From: Escherichia coli
GTDB lineage: Bacteria > Pseudomonadota > Gammaproteobacteria > Enterobacterales > Enterobacteriaceae
DNA length: 64,000 nucleotides
Reading direction: 5' to 3' (one strand)
Assembly (NCBI RefSeq): GCF_045037415.1
Contig: NZ_CP173438.1
How positions within the stretch are numbered: the stretch's first letter is position 1; each line of letters begins with the position of its first letter. Positions 28,429 through 34,267 of this stretch are shown here, piece after piece. A program made the position numbers and the translations under genes. The notes below the pieces were generated by a model. The model was not told the DNA's origin. It made no database searches and saw nothing but the letters and a program-made list of their open reading frames with translations.

Positions 28429-29214
28429 ATGAGTACAGCACTCGCAACGCTGGCTGGGAAGCTGGCTGAACGTGTCGGCATGGATTCTGTCGACCCACAG
28501 GAACTGATCACCACTCTTCGTCAGACGGCATTTAAAGGTGATGCCAGCGATGCGCAGTTCATCGCATTGCTGATCGTCGCCAACCAGTACGGCCTTAATC
28601 CGTGGACGAAAGAAATTTACGCCTTCCCTGATAAGCAGAACGGCATCGTTCCGGTGGTGGGCGTTGATGGCTGGTCCCGCATCATCAATGAAAACCAGCA
28701 GTTTGATGGCATGGACTTTGAGCAGGACAATGAATCATGTACGTGCCGGATTTACCGCAAAGACCGCAATCATCCGATCTGCGTTACCGAATGGATGGAT
28801 GAATGCCGCCGCGAACCATTCAAAACTCGCGAAGGCAGAGAAATCACGGGGCCGTGGCAGTCGCATCCCAAACGGATGTTACGGCATAAAGCCATGATTC
28901 AGTGTGCCCGTCTGGCCTTCGGATTTGCTGGTATCTATGACAAGGATGAAGCCGAGCGCATTGTCGAAAATACTGCATACACTGCGGAACGTCAGCCGGA
29001 ACGCGACATCACTCCGGTTAACGATGAAACCATGCAGGAGATTAACACTCTGCTGATTGCCCTGGACAAAACATGGGATGACGACTTATTGCCGCTCTGT
29101 TCCCAGATATTTCGCCGCGACATTCGCGCATCGTCAGAACTGACACAGGCCGAAGCAGTGAAAGCTCTTGGATTCCTGAAACAGAAAGCCACTGAGCAGA
29201 AGGTGGCAGCATGA
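28429..29214 (+). CDS. bet: Bet (Red-beta) single-strand annealing recombinase
   Basis: 261 aa, [72 protein letters not shown]... essentially identical to lambda Bet. Confidence 0.95.
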
Positions 29215-29891
29215 CACCGGACATTATCCTGCAGCGTACCGGGATCGACGTGAGAGCTGTCGAACAGGGGGATGATGCATGGCACAAATTACGGCTCGGC
29301 GTCATCACCGCTTCAGAAGTTCACAACGTGATAGCAAAGCCCCGCTCAGGAAAGAAGTGGCCTGACATGAAAATGTCCTACTTCCACACCCTGCTGGCTG
29401 AGGTTTGCACCGGTGTGGCTCCGGAAGTTAATGCTAAGGCGCTGGCGTGGGGAAAACAGTACGAGAACGACGCCAGAACCCTGTTTGAATTCACTTCCGG
29501 CGTGAATGTTACTGAATCCCCGATCATCTATCGCGACGAAAGTATGCGCACCGCCTGCTCTCCCGATGGTTTATGCAGTGACGGCAATGGCCTTGAGCTG
29601 AAATGCCCGTTTACCTCCCGGGATTTCATGAAGTTCCGGCTCGGTGGTTTCGAGGCCATAAAGTCGGCTTACATGGCCCAGGTGCAGTACAGCATGTGGG
29701 TGACACGAAAAGATGCCTGGTACTTTGCCAACTATGACCCACGAATGAAGCGTGAAGGCCTGCATTATGTCGTGGTTGAGCGGGATGAAAAGTACATGGC
29801 GAGTTTTGACGAGATGGTGCCGGAGTTCATCGAAAAAATGGACGAAGCACTGGCTGAAATTGGTTTTGTATTTGGAGAGCAATGGCGATGA
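29211..29891 (+). CDS. exo: Lambda exonuclease (Red-alpha)
   Basis: 226 aa, [65 protein letters not shown]... essentially identical to lambda Exo. Confidence 0.95.
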
Positions 29892-30070
29892 CCCATCCTC
29901 ACGATAATATCCGGGTAGGCGCGATCACTTTCGTCTACTCCGTTACAAAGCGAGGCTGGGTATTTCACGGTCTTTCTGTTATCCGAAATCCGCTGAAAGC
30001 CCAGCGGCTGGCTGAGGAGATAAATAATAAACGGGGGGCGGTATGCACAAAGCATCTCCTGTTGAGTTAA
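29882..30070 (+). CDS. Small conserved lambda-region ORF downstream of exo (orf63-like)
   Basis: 62 aa, [62 protein letters not shown]; position and recalled similarity to the lambda exo-xis region ORFs. Confidence 0.55.
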
Positions 30071-30234
30071 GAACGAGTATTGATTTGGCACATAGCCTTG
30101 CTCAAATTGGAGTCAGGTTTGTGCCAATACCAGCAGAAACAGACGAAGAATTTCATACGTTAGCCACATCCCTTTCACAAAAGCTGGAAATGATGGTGGC
30201 GAAAGCAGAAGCAGATGAGAGAGACCAGGTATGA
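30043..30234 (+). CDS. Small conserved lambda-region ORF (orf61-like)
   Basis: 63 aa, [63 protein letters not shown]. Confidence 0.5.
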   Translation: MHKASPVELRTSIDLAHSLAQIGVRFVPIPAETDEEFHTLATSLSQKLEMMVAKAEADERDQV

Positions 30235-30310
30235 CAACCACTGAATGCATTTTTCTGGCAGCGGGCTTCATATTCTGTGTGCTTATGCTTGCCGACATGG
30301 GGCTTGTTCA

Positions 30311-30526
30311 GTGACACCTCAGCAAGAAAATGCCCTTCGCAGCATTGCCCGTCAGGCTAATTCTGAAATCAAAAAAGTCAGACAGCAGTTTCCGGATAAA
30401 AACGTCAATGACATTTGCCGTAGCGTACTGAAGAAGCACCGCGAAACGGTAACGCTGAAGGGATTCACACCGACTCATTTAAGCCTGGCAATCGGCATGT
30501 TAAACGGCGTCTTTAAGGAACGATGA
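30311..30526 (+). CDS. Small exo-xis region ORF (orf60a-like), possible GTG start
   Basis: In frame with ORF 30245..30526; (M)TPQQENALRSIARQANSEIKKVRQQFPDKNVNDICRSVLKKHRETVTLKGFTPTHLSLAIGMLNGVFKER; start uncertain. Confidence 0.4.
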   Translation: MTPQQENALRSIARQANSEIKKVRQQFPDKNVNDICRSVLKKHRETVTLKGFTPTHLSLAIGMLNGVFKER

Positions 30527-30624
30527 ACATGAAAAGCAAAATTATCAGGGAGCTACAGGCTCCTTTTTTATTGTTCGCATTCACCCTCAAGCGTATTAAC
30601 CAACAGTTCAGGGATTAATGAAAG

Positions 30625-30846
30625 ATGGCAGACATCATTGATTCAGCATCAGAAATAGAAGAATTACAGCGCAACACAGCAATAAAAATGCGCCGCCTGA
30701 ACTACCTGGCTGTATCTGCCACTCATTGTTGTGAGTGTGGCGATCCGATAGATGAACGAAGACGCCTGGCCGTTCAGGGTTGTCGGACTTGCGCCAGTTG
30801 CCAGCAAGATCTGGAGCTTATCCGCAAACAAAGGGGGATTAAGTGA
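30625..30846 (+). CDS. TraR/DksA-family C4 zinc-finger protein (lambda orf73-like)
   Basis: 73 aa with CCEC...CRTCASC four-cysteine motif typical of TraR/DksA-type zinc fingers. Confidence 0.6.
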   Translation: MADIIDSASEIEELQRNTAIKMRRLNYLAVSATHCCECGDPIDERRRLAVQGCRTCASCQQDLELIRKQRGIK

Positions 30847-31172
30847 TGGCTAACCTGCAACTTGCTGTTAAAAGTGAATACTTCGATGCCATGATTCGCG
30901 GAGAGAAAACGGAAGAGTATCGCTTGTGTAATGACTACTGGAATAAGCGAATTATGTTCCGGGAATATGACCGCCTGATTATCACAAAGGGATATCCGAA
31001 GCGCGACGATTCCAGTCGCAGAATTGATGTTCCGTATGACGGATATGAAGTGAAGACAATCACACATCCGCACTTTGGCGATAAACCGGTAAAGGTGTTC
31101 GCTATAAAGGTGAATATCAGCACTGAATATCAATCCGCACAACACAAGGTCAAGAATGTTCAGAGTGATTGA
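30843..31172 (+). CDS. Hypothetical protein (109 aa) in the exo-xis accessory region
   Basis: ORF with 4-nt overlap to the upstream gene (operon-like); MMANLQLAVKSEYFDAMIRGEKTEEYRLCNDYWNKRIMFREYDRLIITKGYPKRDD...; family not recognised. Confidence 0.45.
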   Translation: MMANLQLAVKSEYFDAMIRGEKTEEYRLCNDYWNKRIMFREYDRLIITKGYPKRDDSSRRIDVPYDGYEVKTITHPHFGDKPVKVFAIKVNISTEYQSAQHKVKNVQSD

Positions 31173-31395
31173 CCCTAACACCTGGTACGTCGACCACCAC
31201 GGCACTCCCTGCAAAATCCTGCGTTCTACCCACAACAAAGTTCACTACATCCGAAAAGGCAGAACATGTATCGCCAGCATGTTCCGCTTTAATCATGACT
31301 TTGAACCTGTGAATAAAGCTGATGCAGATCGGATAGCAGAAGAGATCGAAACGGCAGAACACATTAAGAAGTTACGTGACATGCGCAGGAAATAG
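31156..31395 (+). CDS. Hypothetical protein (79 aa) in the exo-xis accessory region
   Basis: ORF overlapping the end of the previous gene; MFRVIDPNTWYVDHHGTPCKILRSTHNKVHYIRKGRTCIASMFRFNHDFEPVNKADADRIAEEIETAEHIKKLRDMRRK. Confidence 0.4.
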   Translation: MFRVIDPNTWYVDHHGTPCKILRSTHNKVHYIRKGRTCIASMFRFNHDFEPVNKADADRIAEEIETAEHIKKLRDMRRK

Positions 31396-31534
31396 AAAAA
31401 TTGATAAATTCAATACTGCATTTCTCAGCATTAAATTTATCTCTATGACCAGTCAAGAGATGTACCTGCCATGAGCTTAATATCATGTCAGATATATCGG
31501 TCACAAACTCCCTCAGCAGCTAAGAGGAGGACAA

Positions 31535-31771
31535 ATGTCTCGACTAATCACTTTACAGGACTGGGCTAAAGAAGAATTTGGGGACTTAGCACCAAGTGAG
31601 CGAGTTCTGAAAAAATACGCGCAAGGGAAAATGATGGCCCCACCCGCTATAAAAGTTGGTCGCTACTGGATGATTGACCGAAATTCCCGTTTTGTAGGAA
31701 CGCTTGCAGAACCGCAACTCCCAATAAACGCAAACCCAAAACTCCAAAGGATAATCGCTGATGGCTGCTAG
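31535..31771 (+). CDS. xis: Excisionase (Xis)
   Basis: 78 aa immediately upstream of and overlapping int; preceded by gaggagg; MSRLITLQDWAKEEFGDLAPSERVLKKYAQGKMMAPPAIKVGRYWMIDRNSRF... resembles lambdoid excisionases. Confidence 0.75.
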   Translation: MSRLITLQDWAKEEFGDLAPSERVLKKYAQGKMMAPPAIKVGRYWMIDRNSRFVGTLAEPQLPINANPKLQRIIADGC

Positions 31772-32903
31772 ACCCCGATCTCACAAAATCTCTATACCCA
31801 ATTTATATTGCAAATTAGATAAGCGAACCGGAAAGGTATATTGGCAATACAAACATCCACTATCCGGTCGTTTTCATAGCTTAGGAACTGATGAGAATGA
31901 AGCAAAACAAGTTGCTACTGAAGCAAATACCATTATTGCTGAACAACGTACCAGACAAATATTAAGCGTCAATGAGCGTCTGGAAAGAATGAAAGGCAGG
32001 CGCTCAGACATTACGGTGACAGAATGGCTTGATAAATATATTTCTATCCAAGAGGACAGGCTGCAACATAATGAACTAAGACCCAACTCCTATCGGCAAA
32101 AAGGCAAACCCATTCGTCTTTTCCGTGAGCATTGTGGAATGCAACACCTCAAGGATATTACCGCACTTGATATTGCCGAAATAATTGATGCTGTAAAGGC
32201 TGAAGGTCATAACAGGATGGCGCAAGTCGTGAGAATGGTGTTGATCGACGTCTTCAAAGAAGCACAACACGCAGGACATGTTCCGCCAGGATTTAACCCA
32301 GCGCAGGCAACAAAACAACCGCGAAATCGAGTAAACCGCCAAAGATTGTCACTGCCCGAATGGCAGGCAATATTTGACAGCGTAAGCAGACGGCAGCCCT
32401 ATTTAAAATGCGGCATGCTACTTGCTCTTGTTACTGGACAACGTTTAGGCGATATCTGCAATTTGAAATTCTCTGATATATGGGACGACATGTTGCACAT
32501 TACTCAGGAAAAAACCGGTTCAAAACTTGCTATTCCGCTTAACCTGAAATGCGATGCTCTGAATATTACCCTTCGTGAAGTTATATCTCAGTGCAGGGAT
32601 GCTGTTGTTAGTAAATATCTGGTCCATTACCGTCACACTACCTCTCAAGCAAACAGAGGAGACCAGGTTTCTGCAAATACTCTGACAACGGCTTTTAAAA
32701 AGGCCCGGGAAAAATGTGGCATAAAATGGGAGCAAGGAACTGCGCCCACATTTCATGAGCAGCGATCTCTGTCAGAACGGTTATATCGGGAACAGGGTCT
32801 GGATACGCAAAAGTTGTTAGGCCATAAATCCAGAAAAATGACCGACCGATACAATGATGATCGTGGTAAAGACTGGATTATCGTAGATATCAAAACAGCA
32901 TAG
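31761..32903 (+). CDS. int: Tyrosine-family site-specific integrase (icd-targeting, phage 21/e14-like)
   Basis: 380 aa; C-terminal catalytic region (...HEQRSLSERLY...LGHKSRKMTDRY...) typical of lambda-family integrases; last prophage gene before icd. Confidence 0.9.
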   Translation: MAARPRSHKISIPNLYCKLDKRTGKVYWQYKHPLSGRFHSLGTDENEAKQVATEANTIIAEQRTRQILSVNERLERMKGRRSDITVTEWLDKYISIQEDRLQHNELRPNSYRQKGKPIRLFREHCGMQHLKDITALDIAEIIDAVKAEGHNRMAQVVRMVLIDVFKEAQHAGHVPPGFNPAQATKQPRNRVNRQRLSLPEWQAIFDSVSRRQPYLKCGMLLALVTGQRLGDICNLKFSDIWDDMLHITQEKTGSKLAIPLNLKCDALNITLREVISQCRDAVVSKYLVHYRHTTSQANRGDQVSANTLTTAFKKAREKCGIKWEQGTAPTFHEQRSLSERLYREQGLDTQKLLGHKSRKMTDRYNDDRGKDWIIVDIKTA

Positions 32904-33016: not shown

Positions 33017-34267
33017 TTACATATTCTTGATGATCGCGTCACCAAACTCTGAACATTTCAGCAGTTTAGCGCCTTCCATCAGACGTTCGAAGTCATAGGT
33101 TACGGTCTTGGCATTGATTGCGCCTTCCATACCTTTAACAATCAGGTCAGCCGCTTCAGTCCAACCCATATGGCGCAGCATCATCTCAGCGGAGAGAATA
33201 ATAGAGCCTGGGTTTACTTTGTCCTGTCCGGCATATTTCGGCGCAGTACCGTGGGTGGCTTCAAACAGGGCGCATTCGTCACCGATGTTTGCGCCAGGGG
33301 CGATACCGATACCACCAACCTGCGCTGCCAGGGCGTCAGAAATGTAGTCACCGTTCAGGTTCATACAGGCGATAACATCATATTCAGCCGGACGCAGCAG
33401 GATCTGTTGCAGGAATGCATCAGCAATCACGTCTTTAATGACGATCTCTTTGCCGGTATTCGGGTTTTTAACTTTCAGCCACGGGCCGCCGTCGATCAGT
33501 TCACCGCCAAATTCTTCACGCGCCAGTTGGTAGCCCCAGTCTTTAAACGCGCCTTCGGTGAACTTCATGATGTTGCCTTTGTGCACCAGGGTCACAGAGT
33601 CACGATCGTTAGCAATTGCGTATTCGATCGCTGCACGAACCAGACGTTTGGTGCCTTCTTCCGAACACGGCTTAATACCGATACCGCAATGTTCCGGGAA
33701 GCGAATTTTCTTCACGCCCATCTCTTCACGCAGGAATTTAATCACTTTCTCAGCGTCGGCAGAGTCTGCTTTCCATTCGATACCCGCATAAATGTCTTCC
33801 GAGTTTTCACGGAAGATAACCATATCGGTCAGTTCAGGGTGTTTAACCGGGCTTGGAGTGCCCTGATAGTAACGTACCGGACGCAGGCAGATGTAGAGAT
33901 CCAGTTCCTGGCGCAGGGCAACGTTCAGAGAGCGAATACCGCCACCAACCGGAGTGGTCAGCGGGCCTTTAATGGCAACGCGATATTCACGAATCAGATC
34001 AAGGGTTTCAGCAGGCAACCAGACGTCCTGACCATAAACCTGTGTGGATTTTTCACCGGTGTAAATTTCCATCCAGGAGATTTTACGCTCGCCTTTATAG
34101 GCTTTCTCGACTGCAGCGTCGACCACTTTCAGCATGGCTGGGGTTACATCTACACCGATTCCATCACCTTCAATGTAAGGGATAATCGGATTTTCAGGAA
34201 CGTTGAGTTTGCCGTTTTGCAGGGTGATCTTCTTGCCTTGTGCCGGAACAACTACTTTACTTTCCAT
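33017..34267 (-). CDS. icd: NADP-dependent isocitrate dehydrogenase
   Basis: 416 aa, [73 protein letters not shown]... matches E. coli Icd; known integration target of phage 21/e14-type integrases. Confidence 0.97.

Follow-up and report, generated by a model that had tools for sequence, protein, structure and literature searches.

Results

Two genes between exo and xis in a phage-21-type prophage

We describe here two short, overlapping open reading frames (ORFs) in a 64,000-nucleotide stretch of an Escherichia coli chromosome (RefSeq assembly GCF_045037415.1, contig NZ_CP173438.1), which we refer to as the window. The window contains a phage-21-type lambdoid prophage at icd, and the two ORFs lie in its exo-xis stretch, both on the + strand and overlapping by 17 nt. 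ORF1 encodes an ASCH protein and ORF2 a member of the DUF4222 family, and the two are not a conserved pair but are distributed independently of one another. ORF1 ends at 31172 and starts either at an ATG at 30846 or at a GTG at 30843; the ATG, which begins on the last base of the TGA that ends the preceding TraR gene (30625-30846), is the start used both by RefSeq, as called by the Prokaryotic Genome Annotation Pipeline (PGAP), and in the phage 21 record, and it gives 108 residues, against 109 from the GTG. ORF2 occupies 31156-31395 and encodes 79 residues. An earlier note on this DNA, written from the sequence alone, described a translationally coupled pair of 109 and 79 residues belonging to no assignable family; both ORFs are present and overlap, and the size given for ORF2 holds, but ORF1 has 108 residues from its annotated start.

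These are real genes and not chance ORFs, because homologues are found across genera and because substitutions are concentrated at third codon positions. Homologues of ORF1 with 70-99% identity occur in Escherichia, Salmonella, Klebsiella, Enterobacter, Citrobacter, Kosakonia, Pluralibacter and Erwinia, and those of ORF2 extend down to 41-48% identity. The ratio of nonsynonymous to synonymous substitution rates (dN/dS) is 0.08-0.24 for the ASCH gene and 0.44 for the DUF4222 gene compared with that of phage 21, synonymous divergence being saturated for more distant DUF4222 pairs. Both genes are also already known, being annotated in RefSeq, PHROGs and Pfam and present in phage 21, whose record gives Paris sewage of the late 1950s as its source. 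The 941 bp from 30600 to 31540 are 100% identical in nucleotide sequence to Escherichia phages ev207 and PhiR63_2 and to many E. coli chromosomes, including that of the type strain ATCC 11775, and 98.1% identical over the same 941 bp to phage 21. The ev207 genes (NC_049949.1) are identical to ORF1 and ORF2, and phage 21 carries CPT_21_37 and CPT_21_36 (OL657228.1) in the same order of TraR, ASCH, DUF4222, xis and int and at the same icd site.

ORF1 is a minimal ASCH domain

ORF1 is a minimal, stand-alone ASCH domain with a PUA-like beta-barrel. It falls in phrog_625 of PHROGs (E 2.5e-51) and is named 'ASCH domain-containing protein' by RefSeq/PGAP (WP_000002139.1), and the closest fold matches of its AlphaFold2 (AF2) model are ASCH structures. 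The model has a predicted local distance difference test score (pLDDT) of 83, with secondary structure that includes a helix at residues 10-18 and a strand at 23-27, and the conserved core of the protein spans residues 1-94. The string EKTEEYR singled out in the earlier note is real and is part of the octapeptide GEKTEEYR (30900-30923, codons 19-26), which matches the ASCH signature GxKxxExR and falls in the model where helix 1 gives way to strand 2. This motif is specific to ASCH proteins and lies in the helix 1-strand 2 region that forms the ligand cavity, as described with the EOLA1 structure (PMC6803910). Among 53 ORF1 homologues, E24 is invariant and G19, K21 and R26 are each conserved in at least 90%; E11, T47, D55 and T73 are likewise invariant and H74 and H76 nearly so.

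The resemblance extends across the ASCH superfamily, to proteins of E. faecalis (3iuw), P. horikoshii (PH0355, 2z0t), E. coli (YqfB, 9kyf) and Z. mobilis (ZmASCH, 5guq) and to human EOLA1, with sequence identity to the solved ASCH proteins of 10-20%. EOLA1 carries the signature at the same residue numbers (G19, K21, E24 and R26), although ORF1, with its core of about 94 residues, is shorter than either EOLA1 or ZmASCH. ORF1 is not a member of Pfam ASCH (PF04266) as that family is curated: it scores 14.3 bits (E 0.068) against a gathering threshold of 21.2, and the alignment covers residues 7-29 only (6-28 counted from the ATG). Twenty-five of the 53 homologues give sub-threshold ASCH matches (best E 0.019) and one matches the related DUF3850. 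NCBIfam contained no match to ORF1 or ORF2, and a sequence-profile search of the Protein Data Bank with the ORF1 family returned no ASCH match; a beta-xylosidase match found with the ASCH profile among solved structures (E 0.03-0.04) was discarded as noise.

ORF2 is a DUF4222 protein

Assignment of ORF2 to DUF4222 is unambiguous, and with the PHROGs, RefSeq, motif and fold support for ORF1 it disposes of the view that the two products belong to no family. ORF2 matches Pfam PF13973 with 68.5 bits (E 3.6e-19, threshold 27) across positions 2-53 of the 53-position profile, is placed in phrog_285, and is called 'DUF4222 domain-containing protein' by PGAP (WP_000490213.1); all of the close homologues listed carry PF13973 as well. 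An exhaustive phmmer search against 1.84 billion representatives yielded 40 matches, all of them enterobacterial-type DUF4222 proteins or fragments, and no link to a distant family. In the AF2 model (pLDDT 81) a barrel of four main strands and a short fifth (residues ~10-51) is followed by a 25-residue C-terminal helix (54-78). Its top Foldseek matches, with modest E-values throughout, are nucleic acid- or RNA polymerase-binding barrels of the SH3-like type, among them a PWWP-single-stranded DNA complex, a TnsB domain, the Spt5 KOW domain, the RapA N-terminus and the C-terminal Tudor domain of UvrD. The predicted fold class is thus clearly SH3-like, although these matches do not settle the ligand. 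A retinoic-acid-receptor zinc-finger match to the DUF4222 profile among solved structures, in the same E-value range as the beta-xylosidase match, was likewise set aside as noise.

The sole characterised DUF4222 member that we found in the literature is RgdR (ECs1581), encoded by Sp7/OI-51 of E. coli O157:H7, which activates LEE1 and type III secretion and represses motility (PMC3378721; reviewed in PMC10877973). RgdR binds DNA without apparent specificity (PMC3378721), and Sp7/OI-51 is now seen as a phage-inducible chromosomal island (PMC6092414). ECs1581 taken from the Sakai genome matches DUF4222 with E 2.1e-23, and its computed isoelectric point of 10.09 and mass of 11.703 kDa agree with the values published for RgdR. 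Like RgdR, ORF2 is a small basic DUF4222 protein with a conserved barrel core followed by a helical, basic C-terminal tail. However, RgdR has 99 residues to the 79 of ORF2, which lacks the N-terminal extension, and identity between the two is 24% over 68 residues. The RgdR tripeptide R-G-D (residues 20-22) aligns with P7-N8-T9 of ORF2 and with R-G-Q in a subgroup of 44-48% identity; residue 20 of RgdR is functionally important, and the requirement for RGD was context-dependent in the original study (PMC3378721). The settings differ too, the RgdR gene preceding the primase of a P4-like island and the ORF2 gene preceding xis and int in a lambdoid pL operon. We therefore rejected ORF2 as a true RgdR orthologue on the grounds of the 24% identity and the absent RGD tripeptide and, judged by sequence, it is a member of the family and not the orthologue.

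Three further observations concern the 3' part and the annotation of ORF2. The last ~113 nt (31276-31395, codons ~43-79, encoding the C-terminal helix) recur with 98% identity in Escherichia phage D2, where they are fused to an Ea22-like ORF, which we take as mosaic exchange rather than homology with Ea22. An ORF2-like C-terminus (47% identity) also ends an MT-A70 methyltransferase-like protein, P0224; together these suggest a putative mosaic recombination breakpoint inside ORF2, beside the conserved xis-proximal DNA. In phages 1H12 (locus L004, 1915-2031) and ev017 (locus L005, 2933-3049) RefSeq calls only a 38-residue 'FIG00639352' ORF at this place; decay of DUF4222 to a 38-residue remnant was considered and rejected, as the DNA alignment reveals an intact 79-residue ORF and hence an error in the public annotation.

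The two genes travel separately

Among 5426 complete E. coli genomes, counted at a coverage of at least 80%, the ASCH gene is present in 1461 (27%) and the DUF4222 allele in 2323 (43%), and the full TraR-ASCH-DUF4222 block in 591. Phage records contain ASCH in 160 cases and this DUF4222 allele in 41. We also counted neighbourhoods at 80 close viral DUF4222 loci and at 80 close ASCH loci. TraR is directly upstream of DUF4222, with no ASCH gene and most often with a 47-nt spacer, at 70 of the 80 DUF4222 loci, and only seven contain ASCH; 63 of the 80 ASCH loci have neither TraR nor DUF4222 nearby. The ASCH gene is found instead in a variety of settings: after an EaA/DUF551 gene in the ea region at a representative P22-like locus (L114), beside genes of EaA/DUF551/DUF550 type in Stx-converting, Shigella Sf11 and Salmonella phages, after an Ead/Ea22 gene in Klebsiella, and within the nin region in Erwinia, with P on one side and ninB on the other.

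Divergent DUF4222 genes hold the position just before xis and int and are often right behind TraR, although this is not universal; examples are found in Raoultella (44% identity), on another contig (47%) and in Salmonella, there with a 151-residue insert. Because ASCH and DUF4222 loci are mostly separate and TraR-DUF4222 adjacency is common, the ASCH gene of the phage 21 lineage is a cassette inserted between the members of an older TraR-DUF4222 pair. The proposal that ORF1 and ORF2 form a translationally coupled unit is not borne out by this independent distribution, nor by the origin of the overlap.

The overlap arose by loss of a stop codon

The 17-nt overlap is there because the ASCH gene of this allele has lost its stop codon by a TAA-to-TAT change. 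At 31128-31130, where relatives stop with TAA, the window has TAT, as a DNA alignment with phage ev017 (TAA) shows, and translation continues for 14 extra codons to a TGA at 31170-31172, inside ORF2; the read-through tail thus occupies 31128-31172 on the + strand. In phage 21 this TGA is itself replaced by TTA, so that its ASCH ORF is two codons longer, with 110 residues and a 23-nt overlap. Among 14 viral loci with ASCH before DUF4222 the junction is a 25-nt spacer at four, a 17-nt overlap at three and a 23-nt overlap at seven.

The last 14 residues of ORF1, YQSAQHKVKNVQSD, have no counterpart in the family (53 homologues), whose length norm is 93-96 residues, and have low pLDDT in the AF2 model. 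They are barely basic, with two K/R to one D/E. The earlier note had suggested a small nucleic-acid-binding protein on account of a basic C-terminus; binding of nucleic acid is consistent with the ASCH/PUA-like fold, but the C-terminus is a non-conserved, only mildly basic read-through tail and was a misleading clue to function.

ORF2 has a putative ribosome-binding site of its own, an AAGG Shine-Dalgarno-like element at 31146-31149 (+ strand), 6 nt upstream of its ATG. The element is shared by the window, by phage 21 and by ev017 and is kept even in the allele that stops ASCH upstream, and a ribosome-binding site is annotated there in the phage 21 record. Given the spacer alleles and this element, the overlap is no evidence of designed coupling; it is an allele-specific by-product of stop-codon loss.

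The surrounding interval

The gene order on the + strand between 28.4 and 32.9 kb is bet, exo, DUF1317, DUF1382, an orf61-like ORF, TraR, ORF1, ORF2, xis and int, after which comes icd, and it bears out the placement of the pair in the variable exo-xis slot of a lambdoid prophage, among lambda-like small ORFs and with a TraR/DksA neighbour. The bet gene lies at 28429-29214 and exo at 29211-29891, followed by the DUF1317 gene of lambda orf60a type (29882-30070) and the DUF1382 gene of orf63 type (30043-30234). The orf61-like ORF (30245-30526, 93 residues) belongs to phrog_303 and gives a weak Pfam ZapA match (E 0.0077); in E. coli ATCC 11775 PGAP calls it a pseudogene ('cell division protein ZapA, frameshifted'), while a 71-residue orf61-like 'membrane protein' is annotated in phage 21. 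Between this ORF and TraR there is a GC-rich hairpin (30547-30565) followed by a T-run, terminator-like on the + strand and lying within a 31-residue ORF (30523-30618), in which region the phage 21 record has a 29-residue 'putative secreted protein'.

The TraR gene, of lambda orf73 type, encodes a TraR/DksA C4 zinc-finger protein identified by Pfam zf-dskA_traR (E 6.7e-09), by phrog_54 and by its PGAP name; against TIGR02419 it scores 55.1 bits (E 8.7e-15), under the cut-off of 59.7. As the adjacency counts show, DUF4222 genes usually have a TraR gene as the next gene upstream. The slot is bounded at its end by xis (31535-31771; Pfam Exc, phrog_629) and int (31761-32903), both as annotated by PGAP and in phage 21, and int abuts icd (33017-34267) on the minus strand. 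An antisense ORF of 154 residues lies at 30774-31238. Between the stop of ORF2 and xis are 139 nt that contain an AT-rich inverted repeat (31403-31441) with a 16-pair stem and a 7-nt loop. On the minus strand this repeat has the score of a terminator-like element; it is nearly conserved in phage 21, ev017 and 1H12, with one C/T difference in phage 21, and may bind a protein or impede antisense transcription.

Between 29800 and 33100, Rfam yielded no family at threshold, and promoter- and terminator-like sites were not in excess. On these negative results, which give ORF1 and ORF2 no signal distinct from the pL operon, we rejected both an RNA gene embedded in the interval and a separate unit of transcription.

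Discussion

The observations are probably best explained by two independent and already catalogued accessory genes, neither of them essential, in the exo-xis part of the pL operon of a phage-21-type prophage at icd. In lambda, transcription of the exo-xis stretch takes place early in lytic development (PMC9239242) and, if the operon layout of lambda is a guide to timing, induction or infection would be followed by transcription of ORF1 and ORF2 along with that of exo, bet and the TraR/Orf73 gene. For ORF1, the most likely ligand of the cavity that bears GxKxxExR is RNA or a nucleotide, free or modified, which would give the protein a part in the metabolism of RNA or nucleotides while the phage grows lytically. 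By analogy with RgdR, ORF2 is most likely a DNA-binding protein of low specificity that would modulate host expression, perhaps alongside the TraR/Orf73 homologue, which binds RNA polymerase and whose gene DUF4222 normally follows. Lambda's own TraR homologue, Orf73, is an inhibitor of ribosomal promoters in the host and, although non-essential, increases the phage yield 3- to 4-fold (PMC9239242). We suppose that ORF1 and ORF2 are dispensable fitness factors.

There are several other accounts to consider. The earlier note raised a role in host takeover or exclusion, and in its strongest form this would make ORF1 and ORF2 a new module of two genes, coupled in translation and outside any known family, that serves to take over the host or to exclude superinfecting phages. 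The location in a variable accessory slot and the 17-nt overlap would fit such a module, as would the fact that neither gene has an experimentally defined function and that PHROGs labels both 'unknown function'. However, both genes have family assignments and are found apart far more often than together, the overlap results from a point mutation in a stop codon, and there are alleles with a 25-nt spacer and a Shine-Dalgarno element belonging to ORF2 itself. PADLOC-DB has no family matching either protein at E <= 1, on which ground a catalogued defence role was rejected; the takeover or exclusion role finds no support, and with the module largely refuted by the distribution we regard it as very improbable indeed. 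A more serious proposal is that ORF1 is an enzyme, acting as a ribonuclease, as Zymomonas ZmASCH does, or hydrolysing modified nucleosides or nucleotides, as YqfB does with N4-acetylcytidine, and that the phage uses it to alter host RNA or nucleotide pools. We consider this unlikely overall, yet entertain it because so many polar residues (E11, T47, D55, T73, H74 and H76) are invariant or nearly so. Catalysis by YqfB involves Lys21, the nucleophile Thr24, Arg26 and Glu74, with Lys21, Thr24 and Glu74 forming a triad (PMC9599836). Lys21 is present in ORF1, but position 24 is an invariant Glu instead of Thr, and we therefore rejected ORF1 as an N4-acetylcytidine amidohydrolase of the YqfB type; nor is any residue-level match to the catalytic residues of ZmASCH established, at the low identity to solved ASCH proteins noted above.

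It is also conceivable, though in our view improbable, that ORF2 acts in the lysogen as a functional equivalent of RgdR, regulating host virulence or motility genes and so contributing to lysogenic conversion. The two share a Pfam family and a basic character, and RgdR variants of several pathotypes repress motility. The low identity and the lack of R-G-D at the aligned positions count against such equivalence, as do the position of the gene within the pL operon, which in the lambda paradigm is repressed in a lysogen, and the lack of a promoter-like site before ORF2 on the + strand. We attach about as little credence to a more specific possibility, in which the DUF4222 protein would be a dedicated partner of TraR/Orf73, its SH3/Tudor-like barrel docking on RNA polymerase or DNA (in the manner of the Tudor-like domains in RapA, UvrD and KOW factors) and tuning the shut-down of host ribosomal promoters by TraR; separately, the ASCH protein would recognise or remove a base modification in host RNA, or act in counter-defence. 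Were either the TraR partnership or the reading of modified bases by ASCH correct, it would be the first function for a very common prophage gene.

As a discovery the pair carries little weight, and the useful outcome is a negative one, in that a 'coupled unknown pair' becomes two unrelated cassettes and a stop-codon mutation. What value is left lies in the families themselves, for neither of which is a biochemical function in phages defined, common as the ASCH (27%) and DUF4222 (43%) genes are in complete E. coli genomes, and the recurrent TraR-DUF4222 adjacency is a cheap lead to the effects of the exo-xis region on the development of lambdoid and Shiga toxin (Stx) phages.

Homology to lambda ea or orf proteins had been named in the earlier note as the finding that would speak against its view; it is absent, neither ORF1 nor ORF2 matching Ead_Ea22 or any other lambda family in Pfam. 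The likeness to lambda ea22 and ea8.5 is instead one of place and status: the same slot between orf73 and xis, early transcription from pL in the lambda scheme, and a non-essential accessory character, so that ORF1 and ORF2 replace these genes as alternative cargo and do not resemble them. A modelling paper on the exo-xis region (PMC8614690) mentions neither ASCH nor DUF4222. Free exchange of such cargo is illustrated by a Raoultella planticola prophage (locus L010, 1854-3565), in which genes for a Dam and a C5 DNA methyltransferase lie upstream of TraR-DUF4222 in the exo-xis slot.
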